The position numbers and the translations under genes are program-made. From assembly GCA_905234185.1 (NCBI GenBank), contig CAJOGC010000002.1:103949-167948 (forward strand): a stretch of DNA of 64,000 nt. The letters are read 5' to 3'. Below the pieces are notes generated by a model. It saw nothing but the letters and a program-made list of their open reading frames with translations. It did no database searches and was not told the DNA's origin. Numbering within the stretch: position 1 is the stretch's first letter; the number at the start of each line of letters is the position of its first letter. Source of the DNA: an uncultured Alphaproteobacteria bacterium (GTDB lineage Bacteria; Pseudomonadota; Alphaproteobacteria; Rs-D84). Of this stretch, positions 1 to 40,010 are shown in pieces.

Positions 1-1212
1 GTCCAGGGTGGCGATACAAATATGATTGTTTCTGGGAAATCTGGCAATCAATACATATTTTATTTGCGGGCCGAACCGACTAATTCGTCCGAAATCACCT
101 ATTCCCAGGTAGAGATTATAATGGACGGCAACGCAACTTTGCCTGGTGCGATTGGTACGACCCCGGCACCATCTGGCGGAATGTCATCTGTATTTAAGAA
201 GTCCAGATCTGCTTCCAACACAGTTGGTGTTGATGGTGAAGATTTTGGTTGGATAAAATCTATGAAAATCGACCCATCCGAATTCCGGTTTGATTTGGAT
301 ATATTTGTTCCGAACCCGGACGATTATGTAATTGCCCCGGAACGCGTGTGGCATGATCGCATATTCACATATATTGACTTTGGGGACAAAGTTATCGCGA
401 TGACCCAACGTCCGGTTGTTTCATTACTGGTCGAAGGTGGCGAATCCCCGGTCGGGTTCCGTACCGACGGCCAAGATGGACGTTTGCTGATTGTCGAGGC
501 GGTTGGTGACATGGTTTTGCGCAGTGGTCAACGCATCGTTTGCATTAAAAAACGTGAAAAACCGTTCCTTATCGCCGACACGAACAGTGTTATGGCCCTG
601 GCCGAGGCTAATGTCGCACAATCTATGATGTCGGGTCAATCATTAAACAATATGGCTTATGGCTATGATATGGCGGCGATAAACAGCGCGGGCATAAATT
701 ATACCGGAACGCCGGTTATGGTTGGCAATACAGCCAACACTGCAACCACTGGCTATTACATGCCGGCCGGCTTTATCGCAGGCCAGGCTTATCCACAACC
801 AACACAAAATGTTGGCACATCATCTGGCGCGGTGACAATGATGCCGACCGAACGCGTGACCGCTGGTTCGTATTTGCCCCAATCCAATATTCCAATTATT
901 TCCAGCAACCAAAGCGGTGTTGCCGTTGAATTGAAGTCCGATACTTCGGTAAAGGCGTTGGACGATTACTGGGTTGGATTATTAGCAAAATTTAGTGGTG
1001 AAAATGGCCAAGGATTATTAACCCCATACAAAGACAAAGTGTTCTTTGCGGTTGATGAACAAGGTGTAGGCGATTTGGGTTCCGGCGCAACAACGGCACG
1101 TCTGTATCGTTTGCGTATCGGGCCAATGGCTGATATTGATGCGGCACAAAAATTGTGCGACCAATTGTTAAAATTCAGTGGCGCCAGTTGCAATGTCGTC
1201 AGAATACAGTAA
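1..1212 (+). CDS. virB9: VirB9/TrbG-like type IV secretion outer-membrane core protein, 5'-partial (reading frame is open to the window edge), with a C-terminal SPOR-like extension
   Basis: The central segment VWHDRIFTYIDFGDKVIAMTQRPVVSLLVEGGESPVGFRTDGQDGRLLIVEAVGDMVLRSGQRIVCIKKR matches the VirB9 C-terminal beta domain pattern from memory. The last ~80 aa (YWVGLLAKFSG...LYRLRIGPMADIDAAQKLCDQLLKFSGASCNVVRI) look like a SPOR peptidoglycan-binding domain. A virB10-like gene follows immediately. Confidence 0.5.
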   Translation, partial: VQGGDTNMIVSGKSGNQYIFYLRAEPTNSSEITYSQVEIIMDGNATLPGAIGTTPAPSGGMSSVFKKSRSASNTVGVDGEDFGWIKSMKIDPSEFRFDLDIFVPNPDDYVIAPERVWHDRIFTYIDFGDKVIAMTQRPVVSLLVEGGESPVGFRTDGQDGRLLIVEAVGDMVLRSGQRIVCIKKREKPFLIADTNSVMALAEANVAQSMMSGQSLNNMAYGYDMAAINSAGINYTGTPVMVGNTANTATTGYYMPAGFIAGQAYPQPTQNVGTSSGAVTMMPTERVTAGSYLPQSNIPIISSNQSGVAVELKSDTSVKALDDYWVGLLAKFSGENGQGLLTPYKDKVFFAVDEQGVGDLGSGATTARLYRLRIGPMADIDAAQKLCDQLLKFSGASCNVVRIQ

Positions 1213-1221
1213 TTATTTTGG

Positions 1222-3621
1222 GTGCGGATTAATATGAGTAAACTTGGCGAACAATTTTCAGAACTGCGCAAATCAACACCAAAATATGTCCAGTGGTTAT
1301 TGCTGGCCGCGGCACTTGTTATCGTTTTAATTTTGTTGACTTTGCTTATGACGGGGCCAAAAAATAAAACGGCCCGGTCTGCCCAAAAATCTATGGACGA
1401 AACGCCTATCGAAGTTCGTATGATTACGATAAATGCCGACAACCAAGAAGTTTCTGTTGATAAAATCGATTGGGCCAATGTGATTGTCGGTGAGAAAAAG
1501 AGTACCACGATAACAATCAAAACAAATGCACCGACACGCGTATCTATGACCCAGAACAAGAATATTGTTGGGTTTTCTGCACAAACCACATGTACGGATG
1601 CGACCGTTATAAATGCAAAACTATCATGCAATATATATCTTAAATTCGAACCGACAACCGCCATGTCTCCGGAAACAGTGACATTGTCTGTTTATTGGCG
1701 CGCTGAAAACGACCCCGAAACAATGAATAACACGAAAAAGATTTCTGTCGTTTTGGGTGCCACCGCACCGGTCGTGCGACCTGAACCACAACCAATTGTC
1801 GAACCAGAACCGCTGTTTTCCGACGATTATGACGAACTTGACGATTATGATGAATATGATGACAATGTCGAACCACACCCAACAATTCGTGCGGAAATAG
1901 AATCAATTGCGCCGGCGTTGCCGTTCAATTCCGATATCGTGGAACCCGCACCCGTTGTGGAACGACCATCTGAATCTTGTTCTGATTTTGCCTTTCCGGG
2001 GTATGGTCCAAATGGAAATCAAATTGGCTGGATAAAACCCGAACGCGGCGGATATTATTTTCATCCTTTCTCGGACAAAGATTGTAAAAATGCAACGGGA
2101 ATCTATAACCCGGCAACCGGTGTTATTACCGATATCAGCGGCAATGGAACACGTATCGGAACCGATGCCGAACATATTGGGTATGCGGCCATAAATGATG
2201 GCGCATTGCCGGCACTAAATCCGGCCCCGCGTAGCGCAAGAACCGCATCTAATACCACGGTTTCTTCGACCAATGTTCCTATTGCTGGCATGGGCAAGGT
2301 TATTGTAAAGAAGGAACCAGATGTTGAATTTGCCTCCAGCGGCACAGACACCGTCACAAATACAGTTGCTTACGATCGCACCTTTATATTGCGTCAATAC
2401 AAACCTATTCCGGCGACAATCGTTTCCGATGTTCGTGCCGACCCATCGTTATACAAGCAGGGAAATACACTGCCTGTACGGGCGACGGTTGATCGCAATG
2501 TATATTCCGATAATGGACGCACTGTTATTATCCCGGCGGGGACAATGTTGTTGGGGTATCTGACCGGCACCATGCCCGGACCATATACGGCTATTGGTCG
2601 GATGGAGGTTAATTGGTATCAATTTGTTTTACCAAATGGTGTTGAGTTTAATTTCAGTGGTGCCAATGATCCGTTTTCTGGCGATGCCCAGGGGCGTGTC
2701 GGCGTTCCTGGTCGTGGCAGCACCGATTATTTGGAACAATTTGTTATGCCAATGTTAACGGCAATTGTGCCGGCGGCGGTGAATATGATTGCCCCGGTTG
2801 CCGACAAATTCGTTAATCAAATTGATTTGGACAATAATACAGTTGTACAAAGCGGAACAGTGCGATCGTCTGAATTGGCAAAGAACGAGATTATCACCGC
2901 ATGGAACCAAGTTGCCCAGAAATTATTGGTTGATATGATGGATAACACCGTGCCACCATTTACAATTCCGGCGGGGACCCGTATCACTGTTTATTCACCG
3001 GCTGATTTACAAGTCACGTGTGGCGCCCCAGGTACCAGTAATAAAAAGTGTGCCGTTGCTAAATACAGCGACGCAAAACGCCAATTGTGGAAAAATAGTG
3101 CCGAACCAGATTACTATGACGGTTCATGGGTGGGCCAGGCGCGTTCGTTCAATCTGGAACAATATTGCACAACAGACACTAATAATTTAAGGCGCGCATT
3201 ACCATACAGCGATGTTGGGGCTGAATTACAAAAACTTGGTTATTCATACAGCACGCTTGTTGCGTATTGCCAGGCAAGTAATTACCAGGCGATAAATAAT
3301 GCGCGTCAGGATGCCATTTATCAAAACCAACAAAACCCAAACAACAAAAACAGTGTTGCAAACGCCACCGCCCAGGGGACCAAAACATATAATGAACAGG
3401 TTCTTGGATTGAAATACAATGACGATGGTTCTATTAAGAATCCGTATCAGTCGGAAAAGAAACCAGAATCACAACAACCGACTAATGTCATCACATGTGA
3501 TGATGGTTTGGCACCGGACCAATACGGGTGTTGCACGGGTGAAATATACACAGATATGGGCGAACAGGGTTTCAATTGCTGTCCCCAATCTGGTGGCGAT
3601 TGTTTCCCGCCGATTTTGTGA
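1222..3621 (+). CDS. virB10: VirB10/TrbI-family (DotG-like) type IV secretion protein, 799 aa, with a ~230-aa Cys-rich C-terminal extension
   Basis: An N-terminal TM helix is followed by a Pro-rich acidic linker (PEPQPIVEPEP, DDYDELDDYDEYDD). The C-terminal barrel region carries VIIPAGTMLLGY...WYQFVLPNGVEFNFSGANDPFSGDAQGRVGVPGRGSTDYLEQF...IPAGTRITV, which is typical of the VirB10/TrbI signature. The tail has about 7 Cys in its last 45 aa. A GTG start lies at 1222 and an alternative ATG at 1234. Confidence 0.6.
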   Translation: MRINMSKLGEQFSELRKSTPKYVQWLLLAAALVIVLILLTLLMTGPKNKTARSAQKSMDETPIEVRMITINADNQEVSVDKIDWANVIVGEKKSTTITIKTNAPTRVSMTQNKNIVGFSAQTTCTDATVINAKLSCNIYLKFEPTTAMSPETVTLSVYWRAENDPETMNNTKKISVVLGATAPVVRPEPQPIVEPEPLFSDDYDELDDYDEYDDNVEPHPTIRAEIESIAPALPFNSDIVEPAPVVERPSESCSDFAFPGYGPNGNQIGWIKPERGGYYFHPFSDKDCKNATGIYNPATGVITDISGNGTRIGTDAEHIGYAAINDGALPALNPAPRSARTASNTTVSSTNVPIAGMGKVIVKKEPDVEFASSGTDTVTNTVAYDRTFILRQYKPIPATIVSDVRADPSLYKQGNTLPVRATVDRNVYSDNGRTVIIPAGTMLLGYLTGTMPGPYTAIGRMEVNWYQFVLPNGVEFNFSGANDPFSGDAQGRVGVPGRGSTDYLEQFVMPMLTAIVPAAVNMIAPVADKFVNQIDLDNNTVVQSGTVRSSELAKNEIITAWNQVAQKLLVDMMDNTVPPFTIPAGTRITVYSPADLQVTCGAPGTSNKKCAVAKYSDAKRQLWKNSAEPDYYDGSWVGQARSFNLEQYCTTDTNNLRRALPYSDVGAELQKLGYSYSTLVAYCQASNYQAINNARQDAIYQNQQNPNNKNSVANATAQGTKTYNEQVLGLKYNDDGSIKNPYQSEKKPESQQPTNVITCDDGLAPDQYGCCTGEIYTDMGEQGFNCCPQSGGDCFPPIL

Positions 3622-9416: not shown

Positions 9417-10006
9417 AATGGCCGCCGCCCCCCAAATGCCAATGATAACGTTCCGTCATCGATATAGTCTAAATCACCGCCCAACGGCACACCGGATGCC
9501 AATTCGGAAAACCGAACACCACCACCAATCACCGACATAATATAGTGCTGGGTCGTTTTACCCTCTACCGTATTTGGTAATGCAAAAATAATTTCCGTAA
9601 TATTTTCTTTTTTTATACGGTCGGACAAATTTGCAATATTCAAATCGTCCGGCATTGTCCCCGCCGTTCCGGAAATCAGCCCGCCAATAATATGGTACCG
9701 CCCATGAAACACAGATGATTTTTCCAGTGTCCAAACATCGCCCATATCGCGCACGACACACAGCCCGCCATTGGCACGCGACGTGTCACGACAAAATTCA
9801 CACACACCCACACTTTTATCGGTTAAACAGCCACATATATTGCACGGAACAACATTTTCGGTCGCGTCCAGAATAGCCGCCGCCAGGTTTTCCGCCCGCC
9901 CATCACGCGTCTGTAACAATGACAACACAATTCGCACAGCCGCGCGATTTCCCACGCGCGGCAACTTTGCAAATTGTTTGATTAATTTTTCTATTTTTTG
10001 GTTCAT
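9413..10006 (-). CDS. recR: recombination protein RecR
   Basis: C4 zinc finger (CNICGCLTDKSVGVCEFC) and Toprim region (GLCVVRDMGDVWTLE). Overlaps rsmA by 4 nt. Confidence 0.85.
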   Translation of the reverse strand: MNQKIEKLIKQFAKLPRVGNRAAVRIVLSLLQTRDGRAENLAAAILDATENVVPCNICGCLTDKSVGVCEFCRDTSRANGGLCVVRDMGDVWTLEKSSVFHGRYHIIGGLISGTAGTMPDDLNIANLSDRIKKENITEIIFALPNTVEGKTTQHYIMSVIGGGVRFSELASGVPLGGDLDYIDDGTLSLAFGGRRPL

Positions 10007-10016
10007 ACGCTATCCA

Positions 10017-11183
10017 TCAATGAAACACATAGCAATCGATTCCGTTCGCGGTCGCGGTCGCTTTTAACGACTGCGCCGCGCTTTCCGTCAGCCCATATGC
10101 ACGCACACGGAACAGTCCACTTGGCGCAGTTTCGATAATTGGTGTTGCGCCAGTCACACGTTGAACGGTCGCAATCATTTTTGATGCGGCATCGCGCGAT
10201 GAAAACGCCCCGAATTGAACCCCTGGACCACTGTGCGATGCGGTTGGCACATGATTTGTTGCCGCATGATATGCCCCCGCAAAAGTGTTCACCGCTGTTG
10301 CGCTTTCATAATTTTGATTCTGTTGTTGTGGTTTGCTTTCTACTGGTGTTGCCACTGGGGTTTCACGCACAACCATTGCCGGTGCCGGATTTTTTTCAAC
10401 CATTGCGAAACCACGATTCAGCAAATTTGTTGCCACCGCGGCACGTACATCTTTGTTTTCCGCCCCCAAAACAACCGCCATAAGATGTTTATCACCACGT
10501 CGCGCGGTTGCAACCAATGAATATTTTGATTTATTTGTGTATCCGGTTTTCATACCATCACAGCCCGGGAAAGATCCCAACAAACGATTTCCATTGGTAT
10601 ATGTTTTACCACCATACGTCCATGTTTTGATTCCAAAATACTTCCAATATTGCGGGAAATGTTTATACACCGCCATCGACACCAACGCAATATCACGCGC
10701 CGTTGATAAATGGTCATCATCCGGCAGGCCCGAACTGTTTTCAAAATTAGTCCGCGACAGCCCTATTTCGCGTGCGACACGCGTCATCAGGGACGCAAAA
10801 TTGCCCTCTTTGCCACCTTTCAGATTTTCCGCCAACACGCGTGCGATATCGTTCGCACTGTGCACCGCGACCGCCTTGATCGCATCTTCTACTGTAATTT
10901 TGGAACCCGCCGGAATACCAAGTTTTACCGGTTCCGCATTCGCCGCCGCATTGGACACAATCAGATAGTCATCCAAATGCAACCGCCCATGTTCCAACGC
11001 ATCAAACGTCAGATACAGCGTCATAATTTTTGTTAAACTTGCCGGATAGTTCAAATCAGTTGCGTTTTCCGAATACAGAACCCGCCCCGAATCCATATCG
11101 GCGACCATTGCCGCGCGGTAATTTGCCGCGTGTGCAATCGATGCTATAAACAGCATCGGTAAAATAAGAAATCTTCCCTTCAT
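10017..11183 (-). CDS. D-alanyl-D-alanine carboxypeptidase (PBP5 family) with C-terminal SPOR domain
   Basis: Signal peptide, an SLTKIMT active-site serine motif, and a C-terminal GVQFGAFSSRDAASKM...LFRVRAYGL SPOR-type repeat. Confidence 0.8.
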   Translation of the reverse strand: MKGRFLILPMLFIASIAHAANYRAAMVADMDSGRVLYSENATDLNYPASLTKIMTLYLTFDALEHGRLHLDDYLIVSNAAANAEPVKLGIPAGSKITVEDAIKAVAVHSANDIARVLAENLKGGKEGNFASLMTRVAREIGLSRTNFENSSGLPDDDHLSTARDIALVSMAVYKHFPQYWKYFGIKTWTYGGKTYTNGNRLLGSFPGCDGMKTGYTNKSKYSLVATARRGDKHLMAVVLGAENKDVRAAVATNLLNRGFAMVEKNPAPAMVVRETPVATPVESKPQQQNQNYESATAVNTFAGAYHAATNHVPTASHSGPGVQFGAFSSRDAASKMIATVQRVTGATPIIETAPSGLFRVRAYGLTESAAQSLKATATANGIDCYVFH

Positions 11184-11278
11184 AGCAATTAAAGTTTAGT
11201 AAAATTTTAGTGCGTGGGTCAATAGAGAAATAGAAAACTTTATTTGATTATTATTGCACAATCCTTATAATTTATGCC

Positions 11279-12961
11279 ATGAAACAAAAGTCATACATTA
11301 TTGACGATAAACAACTGATGTCCGAATGGGACTGGGATGCCAATGTTGGTTTAGATCCGAAAACATTAACCCGTGGATCAAATAAAAAGGCATGGTGGGT
11401 ATGTTCGGTATGTGGGCATAAATGGTGTGCCGATATACATCATAGAGCCGTAAGAAAACAAGGTTGTTTAAACTGCCGATATGTATATAAAAAACAACTT
11501 GCTTCTATTTTGTCTGAAACACATCCAAAAGTCCTTAAATACTGGGATTTTTCAAAAAATAAATTGATAACCCCCGAAATTGTCAGCCAGAATTCGCGTA
11601 AAAGCGTTTGGTGGCATTGTCCAGATTGTGGCCATGAATGGGAAGAAAAAATAAAAAATCAGGTTAAAAAATTAGTTTGGTGCCCACATTGTAAGAAGGG
11701 AATTAAAGATTTGGCTTCTGTGGAACCAGAACTTGCAAAAGAATGGCATAAAACAAAAAATACTGATGCCCCAGAACATATTTCGTATGCTTCTAACAAA
11801 TATGCATGGTGGAAATGCCAAAAGTGTGGTTACGAATGGAAAGCCAGAATAGCCAACAGGTCAATATTGAAACGGGGGTGTCCTTGTTGTTCTGGTGGTG
11901 CGGTTGTCGTCGGAATAAACGATTTAAAAACAAAGTTTCCGCATATAGCAAAAGAATGGCACCCTACAAAAAACGGTGAACTTTTACCAGAACAAGTCAC
12001 TTCTGGTACAAGAAAGAAAGTTTGGTGGCAATGCCCACTGGGACACGAATACCAAGCAACGGTAGGACACAGGACATCACAAAATGGCACAGGGTGTCCA
12101 ATATGTTATTCAGGACGTCAAACATCATTCGCTGAACAGGCTGTATTCTTTTATGTAAAACAATTATATCCCGACGCACTAAGCAGGTATAAGGCAGACT
12201 TTTTGGGAAAATTTGAATTGGATATTTATATCCCATCAATCAAATATGCGATAGAATACGATGGTGAAGCATGGCATAAAGCGAATAAATTAGAACGCGA
12301 AAAACGAAAGTATCAATTGTGCAAACAGAACGGCATCACATTACTCAGATTACGAGAAAAGGAACCAGAACATGATGCTGAAGTGGCAGATGATATAATT
12401 TGTGTGAAAAATCTATACGAACACAGAAATCTTGAAATGGTATTAAGACGGTTATTGGTGAAATTGAACCCGCAATCGGTAATGCCTGACAACTTTGTTA
12501 ATTTGGCCAGGGATAATCATAAAATCTTGGAATATAAAAAATCGGCCATATCAGAATCATTGATGTCCGTCAGACCAGATATTGCGATGGAATGGCATCC
12601 AACAAAAAATGGTAACCTGTTACCAAGTATGTTTAAAGCAGGTTCTGAACATAAAGTATGGTGGATTTGTCCAAAGTGTGCCACCGAATATCAAACAAGT
12701 ATTGCTCATAGAACAGATAAAAAGGTTCCAACAGGATGCCCAAAGTGTGGCAAAGAGCGAAGTGACTTAGCGAAAAGTGTCGCTGTAAATATGTTAGATT
12801 TGAAAACGAAAAAAGTATTAAAAACATTCGTTTCTGTATCAGATGCATCAAGGCAAATGAAAATCAATTTATCTAACATATGTATGGCTTGCAAAGGCCA
12901 ACGCAACCAAGCTGGTGGGTACGGTTGGGAATATAATTTAAAAATATGCAAAAGAAAATAA
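11279..12961 (+). CDS. zinc-ribbon-repeat / PD-(D/E)xK (DUF559-like) / NUMOD1 composite protein (homing-endonuclease-like), 560 aa
   Basis: Five WW-x-C-x2-C-x-H-x-W...C-x2-C treble-clef repeats. The central block FELDIYIPSIKYAIEYDGEAWH...GITLLRLRE matches the DUF559/Vsr-like nuclease core. The C-terminal block VSVSDASRQMKINLSNICMACKGQRNQAGGYGWEY matches the NUMOD1 pattern. Confidence 0.6.
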   Translation: MKQKSYIIDDKQLMSEWDWDANVGLDPKTLTRGSNKKAWWVCSVCGHKWCADIHHRAVRKQGCLNCRYVYKKQLASILSETHPKVLKYWDFSKNKLITPEIVSQNSRKSVWWHCPDCGHEWEEKIKNQVKKLVWCPHCKKGIKDLASVEPELAKEWHKTKNTDAPEHISYASNKYAWWKCQKCGYEWKARIANRSILKRGCPCCSGGAVVVGINDLKTKFPHIAKEWHPTKNGELLPEQVTSGTRKKVWWQCPLGHEYQATVGHRTSQNGTGCPICYSGRQTSFAEQAVFFYVKQLYPDALSRYKADFLGKFELDIYIPSIKYAIEYDGEAWHKANKLEREKRKYQLCKQNGITLLRLREKEPEHDAEVADDIICVKNLYEHRNLEMVLRRLLVKLNPQSVMPDNFVNLARDNHKILEYKKSAISESLMSVRPDIAMEWHPTKNGNLLPSMFKAGSEHKVWWICPKCATEYQTSIAHRTDKKVPTGCPKCGKERSDLAKSVAVNMLDLKTKKVLKTFVSVSDASRQMKINLSNICMACKGQRNQAGGYGWEYNLKICKRK

Positions 12962-13052
12962 AAAACACCGGTGTTCTTGTCTCGGCGTAGTCGCGGCATC
13001 GCTGTGCGATGACGGACGAAGACGGATGCCGGTGTTTTTTTTGTATTTTTTT
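12962..13052. terminator. terminator-like hairpin (aaaaaacaccgg...ccggtgttttttt) interrupted by a ~55-bp insertion in the loop
   Basis: The arms caccggtg/gccggtg are flanked by an A run and a T run. The loop contains an extra palindromic sequence (gcatcgctgtgcgatgac). Confidence 0.45.
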
Positions 13053-13056
13053 ACAC

Positions 13057-13467
13057 CTATTCTACCAAATGCGCATCCAGAAACATTGATTGCGACAGGG
13101 CGTTAAAGAAGTTCTGATATGCGGCTGGGGCGGTTATTTCATGCAAACCTGCCGATGCATTGGCACGAACCAACATTTGCTTTTTACCAGATGGACGAAC
13201 CGAAACAGTCATCTTGGAATTATTGGTGAATGATGTCCCGCTGACCGTCCCCAGTGTTTCATCTGCACGATCAATAATGAAACCCAAATCTTGCATTGTG
13301 GAAATCACACTGCGCAGCACCATTTTTTTATCCGATGTGTCAAACATACGCGATTGATAATTGCGCGTCGCCACCTGAGAATTAGCGGTTCCCAAAACAC
13401 TTTGACTGGTTGTCATACAACCGGTTAATAATGTTAACCCGAAAATCGCAATAAATATTTTCTTCAT
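13057..13467 (-). CDS. lipoprotein, paralog of the next gene
   Basis: Lipobox LLTGC. The C-terminal motif YQNFFNALSQSMFLDAHLVE is shared with the next gene. Strong SD (agggggg). Confidence 0.6.
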   Translation of the reverse strand: MKKIFIAIFGLTLLTGCMTTSQSVLGTANSQVATRNYQSRMFDTSDKKMVLRSVISTMQDLGFIIDRADETLGTVSGTSFTNNSKMTVSVRPSGKKQMLVRANASAGLHEITAPAAYQNFFNALSQSMFLDAHLVE

Positions 13468-14438: not shown

Positions 14439-15824
14439 TTAATCCAGTGTTCTTAAACTTATTTTTTCATCATCGACAATCACCAGTTTACCGGTGTGAA
14501 TACCGAATCGGCGGGCGGAATTAAACCCGTCGCGCATACCAAATAACTGTGTATCAAACAACGATGAAACGCCACGCAATAAACATAATTGATTTGCAAC
14601 CATACTGTCATTACATACCGCGATGATTGGAATATCGGGCTTGCGACAAGAAATCTGAATCGTCGCATCTGTATCACGCGCAAAAACAACAATCGCCGAC
14701 GCATGATTTAAAAACGCCATTGACGACACCGAACGTGACCAATCGTTTTGCGGCACGTTATCAACACGCGACCAATCATATGGATTCGCAATTGTGTCGG
14801 AATCCGAAAAAGTCAAAATGCGCGCCATTGTTTCGACTGTATTAACCGGATTTACACCAACGGTTGTTTCTTCACTGGTCATTGCCGAATCGGCGCGCAG
14901 ATATGCCGTGTTCGCAACATCCGATATTTCCGCACGGGTTGGAAAATCACTTTCCACCATCGATGCCAGCATTTGCGTCGCGATTATTACCGGTTTATTC
15001 ATCATGCGACAAACACGAATTATTTTGCGAGTGATTGCCGGCACTTGCTCATACGGAACCTCTACCGCTAAATCGCCACGCGCAATCATAATACCGTCGG
15101 ACACCGACACAATTTCATCAATGCGTTCCACCGCATTTGGACGTTCAATCTTCGCAATAATTTTTATCGGGTATGCAGTGCGTCGCGCAATGAAGTCACG
15201 CACAAACGCAATGTCGGACGCCCGTTGCACAAACGATATTGCAACATAGTCCGGCCGTTTTGTGATTGCGTATTCTAAATCTTCCCGGTCCTTTGCGGTT
15301 AAAACAGATGTTGTAATTTCCGTATCCGGCAAATTAAATCCGCGTCGCGACCATATTTCCGTTCCACGAACGACGGTTGCAACGACTTTGTGTTTAGAAA
15401 CCGATTCCACACGCATTTCAATCTTGCCATCATTCAACAAAATGCGGTCATCAACATTAAGTGATTTTAGAACATCGTTGTCCGGCAAATAAACACGTTT
15501 TGAATTGCCCGGTGTTGGGTCATCATCAAATGTGAAACGCCCACCAACCTTTAATGGATAATGTTCATCAGTTTCAAAATCACCAATGCGATGTTTTGGT
15601 CCCTGAATATCAACGATTACACCAACTGGTTTTTGTAATTCAGTCGCAACATCACGAATTAAATCAATCTTGTGTCCCTGGACACGTCCGGTATCATGGC
15701 TAAAATTAATACGAAAAACATCGGCACCCGCCACAACCATATCGCGTATGGTTTTGCGTGTGTCGCTGTTTGGTCCAATAGACGCGACTATTTTAGTAAA
15801 ATTATACACTCCCTCAGACGACAT
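14439..15824 (-). CDS. pyk: pyruvate kinase
   Basis: KIVASIGPNSD...FRINFSHD...KIENPNAVE-type motifs. The start is placed at MSSEGVYNF; the track ORF (to 16229) carries a spurious N-terminal extension. Confidence 0.85.
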   Translation of the reverse strand: MSSEGVYNFTKIVASIGPNSDTRKTIRDMVVAGADVFRINFSHDTGRVQGHKIDLIRDVATELQKPVGVIVDIQGPKHRIGDFETDEHYPLKVGGRFTFDDDPTPGNSKRVYLPDNDVLKSLNVDDRILLNDGKIEMRVESVSKHKVVATVVRGTEIWSRRGFNLPDTEITTSVLTAKDREDLEYAITKRPDYVAISFVQRASDIAFVRDFIARRTAYPIKIIAKIERPNAVERIDEIVSVSDGIMIARGDLAVEVPYEQVPAITRKIIRVCRMMNKPVIIATQMLASMVESDFPTRAEISDVANTAYLRADSAMTSEETTVGVNPVNTVETMARILTFSDSDTIANPYDWSRVDNVPQNDWSRSVSSMAFLNHASAIVVFARDTDATIQISCRKPDIPIIAVCNDSMVANQLCLLRGVSSLFDTQLFGMRDGFNSARRFGIHTGKLVIVDDEKISLRTLD

Positions 15825-15897
15825 TGATTTTTCTTTGTCTTGATTTTTCGATTTTATGATATAACATATTGCCATAACATAACAAGGGGAAAAATAC

Positions 15898-16146
15898 ATG
15901 AAAAACGCAAACCATGGTGCAATTGATAACGCACAGTTAATCAGCATTATCGAACGAATCGAAAAATTAAACGAAGAAACCGCCGCAATCGCCGCCGATA
16001 TCAAGGAAGTGTACAGCGAGGCCAAGTCCGCCGGTTTCGATCCAAAATATATTCGCCAAATGATACGTTTGCGTAAAATGGATCCAGACGAACTGGACGA
16101 AGCGGACGAATTAACACAAATGTATCGTTCTGCATTGGGGTTATAA
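15898..16146 (+). CDS. gapR: GapR (DUF2312) nucleoid-associated protein
   Basis: Collinear with Caulobacter GapR (IERIEKLNEE...ADIKEVYSEAKSAGFDPKYIRQMIRLRK). This is a lineage marker for alphaproteobacteria. Confidence 0.8.
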   Translation: MKNANHGAIDNAQLISIIERIEKLNEETAAIAADIKEVYSEAKSAGFDPKYIRQMIRLRKMDPDELDEADELTQMYRSALGL

Positions 16147-16460
16147 TGAAACGTTTTACAAAACGTGTTGAAGATTTTACATGCGCACATTGTGGCGCAA
16201 ATGTTTCGGGCAATGGATACACAAACCATTGCCCGAAATGCTTATATTCACGTCATGTTGATAATACACCGGGCGACCGCGCGTCGAATTGCGGTGGAAT
16301 GATGGCACCAATAAGTATTGAAAAGTCGGGAAACGATTTTATCATTACGCACCGCTGTGAAAAATGTGGCAAAACAATTCGCCAACACACCGCCGAAAAT
16401 GACGACATGGACACAATAATTTCCATTTCCACCAACGATTCGTTTGTGTTTGGAAAATAA
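16146..16460 (+). CDS. RNHCP-domain protein
   Basis: YTNHCPKCL motif and Cys clusters. The start overlaps the gapR stop (TAATG). Confidence 0.6.
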   Translation: MKRFTKRVEDFTCAHCGANVSGNGYTNHCPKCLYSRHVDNTPGDRASNCGGMMAPISIEKSGNDFIITHRCEKCGKTIRQHTAENDDMDTIISISTNDSFVFGK

Positions 16461-39309: not shown

Positions 39310-39429
39310 AATAAAACTCCTTTGATAATTCACTATATTTACGGAAATAATTGTATCACAAAAAACATAATAATCAAACAAAAACGGATAGGGTTGTTGG
39401 CAGGTATAAAAAAACGCGTAGCGTTTTCG

Positions 39430-39983
39430 CCTGCCCCCATTTTGTGGGGCGGGACAGAGTCGGCTTATGAACGCAGTGAATTAGCGACTCTTGGGTGGGG
39501 GCATTATTTTCCCCATCGCGACACAAAAAATTCATTAAAATCCAAATGTTCGTTTATACACATGTGCAATGTATCAACAACCGTTTTCATACCTTGTTTC
39601 GTTAATTCTGCATTTGCAACACGAATAACTTTATAGCCCTGTGATTCTATAAACTCTGTGCGCTTGTTGTCGTATTCAATATTTTCTGCGTGTTGGTTGC
39701 CATCAAGTTCAATAACCAATTTCAATTCATTACACACAAAATCAACATAATATGGACCAAACGGTTGTTGCCGGCGGAACTTTACCCCCAGTTTGTTATT
39801 ATTAATTTGATACCAGAATTTGCGTTCTGGGTCAGACATATTTTTACGCAGGTTTTTTGCACGAATAATGTTTGCTGGGTGATTTGTCATAATACAATTT
39901 TACCCCCACCCAAGATTTTCATCAACATTAAAAATGTTGTGAAAATCTGTCCCGCCCCACACGCACAATGTGCGCGGGGGCAG
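39430..39983. mobile_element. compact TIR-bounded element carrying a single DUF559 endonuclease gene
   Basis: Left TIR cctgccccc...gtggggcgggacagagtcggcttatgaacgcagtgaattagcgactcttgggtggggg (39430-39502). The right TIR (39902-39983) is its reverse complement with a variable internal palindrome. The ORF fills the interior. Confidence 0.65.
39504..39890 (-). CDS. DUF559 (Vsr-like PD-(D/E)xK) endonuclease-domain protein, 128 aa
   Basis: PERKFWYQI...FGPYYVDFVCNELKLVIELDGNQH...DNKRTEFIESQGYKVIRV is the canonical DUF559 core. Confidence 0.7.
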   Translation of the reverse strand: MTNHPANIIRAKNLRKNMSDPERKFWYQINNNKLGVKFRRQQPFGPYYVDFVCNELKLVIELDGNQHAENIEYDNKRTEFIESQGYKVIRVANAELTKQGMKTVVDTLHMCINEHLDFNEFFVSRWGK

Positions 39984-40010
39984 GTGAAAAATGCACCAAA
40001 CGGCGCATTT

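Follow-up and report, generated by a model that had tools for sequence, protein, structure and literature searches.

A candidate homing-type endonuclease with a DUF4379 zinc-ribbon array and a Vsr-like core, inserted upstream of dacA in a gut alphaproteobacterium

The 64-kb stretch of DNA analysed here (64,000 nucleotides of contig CAJOGC010000002.1 from an uncultured alphaproteobacterium; hereafter the window) carries, upstream of dacA, a gene for a 560-amino-acid (aa) protein in which five zinc ribbons and a C-terminal I-HmuI/NUMOD1-like module accompany a central Vsr-like nuclease domain. On balance, this free-standing gene probably encodes a site-specific DNA endonuclease of homing type, which would belong to the Vsr-like (EDxHD) branch of the PD-(D/E)xK nucleases and, within it, to a branch built on DUF4379 arrays. 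We hold this reading with guarded confidence, because an EDxHD/Vsr core is combined in the protein with a modular array and an I-HmuI-type tail, and because it has relatives in phages and introns, a precise presence/absence polymorphism and a mobility confined to the open reading frame (ORF) without a recombinase.

Domain architecture of the protein

The ORF lies exactly where an earlier, model-made reading of the window (the first-pass annotation) had placed it. The four N-terminal zinc-ribbon repeats and the fifth after the core described there were recovered as five 'treble clef' stretches of the Pfam family DUF4379 (E=2.2e-90), and a regular-expression search together with an alignment of the repeats put the zinc knuckles at aa 39-66, 111-138, 177-204, 249-276 and 461-490. 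The top-scoring Pfam stretch (aa 223-277) falls within ribbon 4, whose first knuckle reads CPLGH, replacing CxxC. For ribbon 5 the nearest solved relatives are DUF4379 domains in trypanosomatid mitoribosomal proteins (6sga_Fd, E=1e-4). DUF723 appears as a faint precomputed match to the protein, and CapR was not among its Pfam matches at E<=1. Faint, sub-cut-off Pfam matches to HypA, Zn_ribbon_8, DnaJ, Cys_rich_KTR and families of that kind were rejected as separate domains, as they reflect the CxxC knuckles of the ribbons.

The C-terminal module has the beta-beta-HTH-beta fold (HTH, helix-turn-helix) of the I-HmuI C-terminal domain. A search with the full protein left MTES_1575, DUF559, I-HmuI_NUMOD-like and NUMOD1 all below threshold, and the last 71 aa alone came just under the cut-offs, with 24.5 bits on I-HmuI_NUMOD-like PF22083 (cut-off 27) and 20.9 on NUMOD1 PF07453 (cut-off 22.8). 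Among the tails of the family, PF22083 is matched at E<=0.01 by 25/27 and PF07453 by 19/27, with best E values of 8e-9 and 4e-8, respectively, in line with the NUMOD1-like C-terminus that had been proposed. HNH/homing endonuclease families in PHROGs match the repeats and the core (phrog_559, E=4e-42; phrog_3339, E=1e-14). A match between the profile of the C-terminal module and the designed beta-propeller 'Tako8' (E=1e-10) was rejected as a repeat artefact because each repeat scored just ~5 bits.

A Vsr-like nuclease core with conserved catalytic positions

The central domain has a Vsr-like PD-(D/E)xK catalytic fold. It had been described as DUF559-like, and profile and structure searches uphold a Vsr/DUF559-like fold; the family that passes the Pfam threshold, however, is DUF2726 (PF10881; aa 320-373, 29.4 bits vs a cut-off of 24.7), and DUF559 itself (PF04480) stays below its gathering cut-off in this protein (14.4 bits vs 20.6, E=0.035). 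Searches with tblastn led to phage genes labelled 'Hef-like' and 'homing endonuclease' at E values between 1e-6 and 1e-10. When the nuclease domain sequence was used by itself to query the PDB with phmmer, chance matches alone came back (NDUB15 and SnoaL-like, E about 0.05-0.09), and it took the family profile to reach 3r3p.

The candidate catalytic residues could all be located: E286, D315, E326, D328, H333, E341 and K344. When the nuclease domain (aa 278-437) was extracted from 99 homologues, the invariant or nearly invariant positions were T282, S283, F284, E286, Q287, Y292, E313, D315, P319, E326, Y327, D328, G329, H333, K344, R357 and E360, with E286, D315 and H333 strictly invariant. Position 341 is acidic in 99/99, as glutamate in 75, as in the window protein, and as aspartate in 24. 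The family profile found I-Bth0305I (3r3p_A) as its top sequence match in the PDB, in register and at a non-significant E=0.13. This alignment was combined with the residue roles published for I-Bth0305I, whose catalytic residues are E170, D196, H213 and D222 (PMC3239194). In the resulting equivalences E286 corresponds to E170 (E25 of Vsr), D315 to D196 (D51), H333 to H213 (H69) and E341 to D222 (D97); D328 falls on N208 (H64 of Vsr), and E326 on an acidic residue at the position of Vsr F62. Since the I-Bth0305I residues map onto conserved positions of the family, the window protein has the complete set of EDxHD-type active-site residues, and the set is conserved.

The nuclease fold had also been said to recur in an element at about 39.4 kb, and it does. 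The ORF at 39504-39890 encodes a DUF559 protein (Pfam E=2.9e-34; PDB 3hrl_A, E=1e-20), and its hhalign alignment to the nuclease profile is in register (E=5e-4, probability 31%). This ORF (128 aa, minus strand) lies between a small ORF and an acyl-ACP-thioesterase-like gene. Three nested inverted-repeat pairs surround it (39424-39438/39976-39990, 39443-39458/39946-39961 and 39489-39508/39896-39915), so that it sits inside a long imperfect palindrome (39424-39990).

A clean insertion next to dacA

A four-way alignment of two filled alleles (the window and locus L003) with two empty ones (L010 and L015) defines a clean insertion of ~1,729 bp between the U-run of the lipoprotein-gene terminator and the dacA promoter. 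Alignment of the flanks reaches GGGTCAATAGAGAAA on the side of the dacA promoter and the A-run of the terminator on the other; because the junctions are A/T-rich, the ends of the cassette are fixed only to about +-4 nt. The nuclease, described in the first-pass annotation as a gene standing alone between dacA and a lipoprotein cluster, is the sole ORF of the insert. Neither the filled vs empty alignment nor the ORF list revealed a terminal inverted repeat (TIR), a target-site duplication (TSD), an att-like repeat or a recombinase (transposase or integrase) at the window locus. Within the 64-kb window, tblastn found no second copy of the gene.

Empty sites, with ~100 bp from the lipoprotein-gene terminator to dacA, are present in L010, L015 and L172, whose DacA proteins are 91%, 85% and 88% identical, respectively. 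The spacer of L010/L015-type alleles contains CACCGGCAAACGCCGGTGTTTTTTTGTTGTTTTTCTCTATTGACCC. The filled allele L003 and the empty allele L015 are close, with a synonymous divergence (dS) of 0.39 in dacA and 0.40 in recR. The inserted gene itself has the composition of foreign DNA, its GC content being 38% with a positive GC skew, against 43-50% and a negative skew in the surroundings. It is intact and under purifying selection, since the ratio of nonsynonymous to synonymous change (dN/dS) against the L003 copy is 0.084, compared to 0.08 for dacA, 0.08 for recR and 0.065 for a lipoprotein gene.

The cassette promoter matches the consensus at 10/12 positions in a promoter scan. A TTG(A/T)TT-N16/17-TATAAT-N6/7-ATG arrangement is conserved upstream of homologues in 9/9 loci examined (the window, L003, L005, L009, L250-L253 and L255), and no Shine-Dalgarno sequence was seen before the nuclease ORF. 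Because TATAAT ends 6-7 nt before the ATG, the family is predicted to be expressed from leaderless mRNAs, with a putative transcription start at or next to the ATG.

At its other end the gene meets a bidirectional terminator common to the convergent lipoprotein gene. The first-pass annotation had this terminator disrupted, which the alleles do not bear out: in the empty alleles the outer stem is likewise CACCGG/CCGGTG and encloses a loop of 4 nt, and in the window the loop contains a 51-nt insertion (12976-13026). The window version still folds into a single long hairpin with U's after it (-39.4 kcal/mol, z=-5.1) and is regarded as extended rather than disrupted. The loop insert of L003 is about 38 nt (~9700-9740), and the two inserts align only weakly with each other. 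Loop expansion goes with the nuclease gene, both filled alleles being expanded and both aligned empty alleles having the 4-nt loop. As a repeated REP- or MITE-like (repetitive extragenic palindromic; miniature inverted-repeat transposable) element the 51-nt insert was rejected, being unique in the window. A simple terminator scan of 11000-13200 returned nothing, because it restricts loop size, and Rfam at a permissive E-value gave no intron or other RNA family around the nuclease gene.

Distribution at the dacA site

About 160 related dacA loci, 80 from GTDB species representatives and 80 from metagenome contigs, were collected by dacA-anchored scans, and this comparison identifies the host as a rumen/gut 'Candidatus Enterousia'-like alphaproteobacterium. 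An identical protein is encoded, with the same neighbours, on a rumen/gut metagenome scaffold. Relatives might have been expected to lack the gene in the dacA-lipoprotein interval, and nearly all of them do: it was found within 10 kb of dacA in 0/80 of the 'Candidatus Enterousia'-like species-representative loci, and 1/80 of the metagenome loci carries it (L204, which is the L003 contig); the two carriers also have sister genomes without it. The gene is thus free-standing, with a precise presence/absence polymorphism (filled in the window and L003; empty in L010, L015 and L172), and it is accessory.

The same spot takes other genes. In the nearest dacA relative of the window (L170, 97%) this position is occupied, in like orientation, by a NERD-domain gene, and the same holds for L176, L012 and L178; these membrane-anchored NERD-domain genes lie upstream of the dacA promoter at L170:1-560, L176:2161-3406, L012:1-511 and L178:1-291. 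Further occupants are an EcoRI-like endonuclease with a D12 methylase, that is, a restriction-modification (R-M) pair (L017:8081-9915), one or two Stealth capsule phosphotransferase genes (L016:5959-7056, L011:7877-9886) and an outer-membrane-protein (OMP) beta-barrel gene (L171:4261-4860); in some other relatives the spacer is empty or pyruvate kinase directly abuts dacA. Because relatives hold NERD, EcoRI-like R-M, Stealth or OMP genes there, the dacA-upstream spacer of Enterousia-like genomes is a general cargo hot spot. In four of the relatives (L014, L015, L017 and L075) recR starts ~1.1 kb after dacA (dacA end ~11165, recR start ~12295), whereas the window and most other relatives have about 15 bp between the two genes, which suggests a second variable insertion spot.

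Copies in other contexts and extent of the family

Homologues of 70-91% identity occur in at least 7 unrelated contexts (Table 1). Comparison across contexts by blastn shows that homology to the window starts at the promoter or the ATG and stops at the end of the ORF; three contexts have a terminator of their own in common. In L005-L008, a 72%-identical homologue adjoins an 838-aa UvrD/AAA_11/AAA_12 helicase-DUF2726 fusion (L005:9913-12429) with an HNH_5 gene nearby, and the DUF2726 of this fusion is the Pfam family of the window nuclease core.

The copy in the window is closer to homologues in an integrase island (L253-L255; 89.3-89.6% DNA identity, confined to the ORF) than to the syntenic copy in L003 (78%), and a neighbour-joining (NJ) tree, which has no bootstrap support, places L003 outside the group formed by the window and island copies. 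The gene tree thus appears incongruent with both synteny and the host tree. That the window and L003 simply inherited their dacA-site copies vertically was considered and rejected: the similar dS of gene and flanks would fit it (the two syntenic copies are as diverged as their flanks, dS about 1.2-1.6), but the closer relationship to the island copies (89% vs 78%) and the gene-less sister genomes of the carriers speak against it. Given the lack of bootstrap support, the relation between the two copies may be one of allelic replacement or of independent insertion.

A word-index search returned at least 7,896 significant homologues among 8,000 candidates, most with 5-12 zinc ribbons flanking a central nuclease, and the nuclease is embedded between repeats in nearly all of 120 homologues among the matches listed. 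Among 50%-identity cluster representatives the nuclease profile matches 20,694 at E<=1e-3 and 3,942 at E<=1e-10. At least 395 relatives lie in IMG/VR contigs, and 165 phage GenBank records match, annotated variously as homing endonuclease, Hef-like, HNH or DUF4379; the cluster to which the window protein belongs goes under the public names 'hypothetical protein' and 'zinc-ribbon domain-containing protein'. Foldseek on BFVD recovered phage endonucleases and giant-virus proteins named 'treble clef zinc finger' or 'restriction endonuclease', among them those of Marseille-, Klosneu-, Mimi- and Harvfovirus, at E values of about 1e-4 to 1e-3. Of the first-pass view that the architecture is typical of giant viruses and amoeba-associated bacteria, the existence of giant-virus relatives is borne out (PMC5513546, Foldseek); the host, however, is a gut/rumen alphaproteobacterium and no amoeba symbiont, and most relatives are found in gut bacteria and phages.

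Homing endonuclease or defence nuclease

These results are most readily accommodated by a model in which the five treble-clef zinc ribbons and the I-HmuI-type HTH module would lie along a long DNA target and so position the central nuclease domain. A Vsr-type metal centre would do the cutting: D315 and E341 would bind the metal, H333 would act as the general base, and accessory roles would fall to E286, E326 and D328. As for mobility, the gene would travel as a minimal transcription unit (a sigma-70-type promoter, the ORF and, in some lineages, its own terminator), with the promoter placed so that the mRNA may start at or next to the ATG. No integrase or transposase would take part in its spread into gene-less sites, which would rely on recombination that is either break-stimulated or plainly homologous or illegitimate. 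The first-pass label of a free-standing selfish nuclease fits to the extent that the gene is free-standing and accessory and a homing-type enzyme is favoured; its selfish character is a conjecture at a site that serves as a general cargo hot spot.

Several observations weigh against the homing model. Sequence similarity to I-Bth0305I alone is not significant (E=0.13), and no conserved target motif flanking the different insertion sites was apparent by eye. Just 2 lineages among the roughly 160 related loci (the window and L003) carry the gene at the dacA site and, as this spacer is a cargo hot spot, the polymorphism could come from ordinary flank-mediated exchange with no help from the nuclease. 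Several homologues lie in defence-like or integrase-island neighbourhoods, and purifying selection over dS>1 has been as strong as on housekeeping genes, as would be seen for a gene of benefit to its host.

Much of this could also be read as the signature of a stand-alone, restriction-like defence nuclease carried as cargo in a variable hot spot, with the array and HTH module recognising foreign DNA and the Vsr-like domain degrading or nicking it; the patchy distribution would then reflect turnover of defence genes rather than self-propagation. This is the main rival to the homing model, and we consider it possible but distinctly the less probable of the two. It draws on the EcoRI-like R-M pair (L017) and NERD nuclease-like genes (L170, L176, L012, L178) that occupy the same spacer in relatives, on homologues that adjoin the UvrD-type helicase-DUF2726 fusion and HNH_5 gene or a C5 DNA methylase, on homologues whose island also carries SACS/NOV_C, PIF1 helicase, HNH_3, Fic/RhuM and an integrase, on the strong purifying selection and on the annotation of Marseillevirus relatives as restriction endonucleases. 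However, the only PADLOC model to match was 'homing endonuclease' (HEase, E=4e-4), on the C-terminal tail, and no cognate methyltransferase or partner gene was found among the neighbours in the window. In addition, an I-HmuI/NUMOD-type tail and an EDxHD-type core are hallmarks of homing endonucleases, and a single ORF with its own promoter moves into housekeeping intergenic sites.

Two other origins are less likely than either of these. A homing-endonuclease-derived protein kept for a cellular function, as a site-specific nickase in repair or recombination or as a regulator, would explain why the dN/dS resembles that of dacA, recR and the lipoprotein gene, why the fold is that of the repair enzyme Vsr and why the syntenic copies are as diverged as their flanks. 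Such domestication is improbable: the gene is absent near dacA in 80/80 species representatives and in the closest relatives of both carriers, contexts differ between close homologues, the gene tree appears incongruent with synteny and all catalytic residues are retained, which also argues against a derivative that only binds DNA. We regard as more improbable still that the protein is the nuclease of a transposon-like or integrative element whose ends are acted on by a recombinase or transposase. Some homologues do lie beside tyrosine integrases, and a TrbI conjugation gene is located about 8 kb away on the window contig, but the insert consists of just ~1.73 kb of promoter and ORF with none of the expected TIR, TSD, att-like repeat or recombinase, and between contexts the homology extends no further than the promoter or ATG on one side and the end of the ORF on the other.

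The homing-type endonuclease suggested here is of interest beyond this locus, which offers a clean natural example of a very large and almost unannotated nuclease family (~20,700 50%-identity clusters). Here the filled and empty alleles and the limits of the cassette are unusually well defined, as are the conserved promoter of leaderless type and the complete complement of catalytic residues, and therefore the ~100-bp empty spacer is a concrete substrate for the homing question; the locus could also reveal the DNA code read by the zinc-ribbon array. It further marks a cargo hot spot in Enterousia-like gut alphaproteobacteria, namely the spacer upstream of dacA. A wider and rather doubtful proposal is that the DUF4379 array reads DNA in a modular fashion, each module covering a short DNA step, so that the number and order of modules (5 to about 12 per protein across the family) would set the target of the Vsr-like nuclease. 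If so, the array would be a natural 'beads-on-a-string' scaffold for a nuclease, perhaps one that can be re-programmed, comparable to zinc-finger or TALE arrays, and such bacterial cassettes might be selfish elements and, at the same time, nucleases against phages in variable hot spots.

Relation to known nucleases

The window gene adds one more member, modestly different in architecture, to a family that papers of 2011 and 2025 have described. Hef-type phage genes were already linked to the Vsr-like family in the 2011 paper on I-Bth0305I (PMC3239194). Phage group I and II introns have since been reported to carry homing endonuclease genes (HEGs) with 3-5 CapR/DUF4379/DUF723-like domains and an EDxHD/Vsr-like nuclease, termed a large unrecognised outgroup of EDxHD HEGs (PMC12350094, NAR 2025). 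Compared by description, these HEGs and the window protein both combine several ~60-aa DUF4379/DUF723-like modules with an EDxHD/Vsr-like nuclease, the 3-5 ~60-aa DUF4379/CapR/DUF723-like domains of the former standing against five DUF4379 stretches in the latter, and the family is large, mostly unannotated and represented in phages and bacteria. The nuclease is C-terminal in the phage intron HEGs, whereas in the window protein it is central and followed by the fifth zinc ribbon and the I-HmuI/NUMOD1-like HTH tail; moreover, those HEGs are intron-encoded, and the window gene is free-standing in a bacterial chromosome with a leaderless-type promoter.

I-Bth0305I, the EDxHD prototype (PDB 3R3P; PMC3239194), has two N-terminal NUMOD2 repeats and no zinc ribbons, lies in a group I intron of a phage recA and carries N208 where the window protein has D328. 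DUF559, DUF2726 and Vsr domains (NGO0050, PDB 3HRL; E. coli Vsr, 1CW0) have the core fold and the motif order (..D-hydrophobic.. / ..IExDGxxH.. / ..hhR) in common with the window core. Unlike the window protein, typical DUF559 proteins, such as that encoded at 39504-39890, are small and single-domain, without zinc-ribbon arrays or HTH tails, and Vsr, a repair nickase specific for mismatches, has a zinc site of its own and Trp residues that intercalate. The likeness to I-HmuI (PDB 1U3E) is in the C-terminal DNA-binding domain/NUMOD1, as its catalytic domain is HNH and that of the window protein PD-(D/E)xK. Marseilleviruses encode four DUF4379 domains with a restriction-endonuclease-like domain (Lausannevirus, Insectomime ISTM_159; PMC5513546). 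Such 'restriction endonucleases' of Marseilleviridae and other giant viruses share with the window protein multiple DUF4379 domains combined with a restriction-endonuclease-like domain; they belong to viruses of eukaryotes, the likeness is at the level of fold only and the function of both is putative.

Features and neighbouring genes

Table 1 Coordinates of the features in the window, and genomic contexts of homologues
Feature	Location	Strand	Basis or content
Nuclease ORF (560 aa), zinc-ribbon-array Vsr-like endonuclease	11279..12961	+	ORF call, Pfam, homologue search
Inserted cassette, about 1729 bp (~1.73 kb), promoter and ORF	11233..12961	+	filled/empty four-way alignment
Cassette promoter	11244..11278	+	TTGATT (11244-11249), 16 nt, TATAAT (11266-11271), 7 nt to ATG
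Zinc ribbon 1 (aa 12-68; C42, C45, C63, C66)	11312..11482	+	Pfam DUF4379, regular expression, repeat alignment
Zinc ribbon 2 (aa 84-140)	11528..11698	+	Pfam DUF4379, regular expression, repeat alignment
Zinc ribbon 3 (aa 150-206)	11726..11896	+	Pfam DUF4379, regular expression, repeat alignment
Zinc ribbon 4 (aa 222-278)	11942..12112	+	Pfam DUF4379, regular expression, repeat alignment
Vsr/EDxHD-like PD-(D/E)xK nuclease domain (aa 279-433)	12113..12577	+	helical extension after core
Zinc ribbon 5 (aa 434-492)	12578..12754	+	Pfam DUF4379, regular expression, repeat alignment
C-terminal I-HmuI/NUMOD1-like DNA-binding module (aa 495-560)	12761..12958	+	beta-beta-HTH-beta, AGGYxWxY motif
Bidirectional terminator, common to convergent lipoprotein gene	12960..13046	.	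outer stem CACCGG/CCGGTG; alignment and folding
Homologue context	L005-L008		between dinB and UvrD-type helicase fused to DUF2726
Homologue context	L009		beside HTH protein and integrase
Homologue context	L250		between dCMP deaminase and NADAR/nrdG/nrdD
Homologue context	L251		after murG cluster
Homologue context	L252		beside C5 methylase
Homologue context	L253-L255 (L253/L254:1-9746, L255:1-8344)		island: SACS/NOV_C, PIF1-type helicase, HNH_3, RhuM/Fic, integrase

The genes that flank the nuclease ORF (kefB-like, ksgA, recR, dacA, three lipoprotein genes and pyruvate kinase) are all on the minus strand, opposite to it. The TrbI (conjugal transfer) gene (window ~1-3620; L001:1-2343), which shares the scaffold with the nuclease locus and lies ~8 kb upstream of it, hints at a conjugative element near that locus. 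The pyruvate kinase ORF, called mechanically at 14439-16229, spans 596 aa, whereas gene calls and homologues give a 461-aa product; the additional 135 aa at its N-terminus are an artefact of extending the ORF upstream and overlap the region of a GapR gene on the opposite strand.

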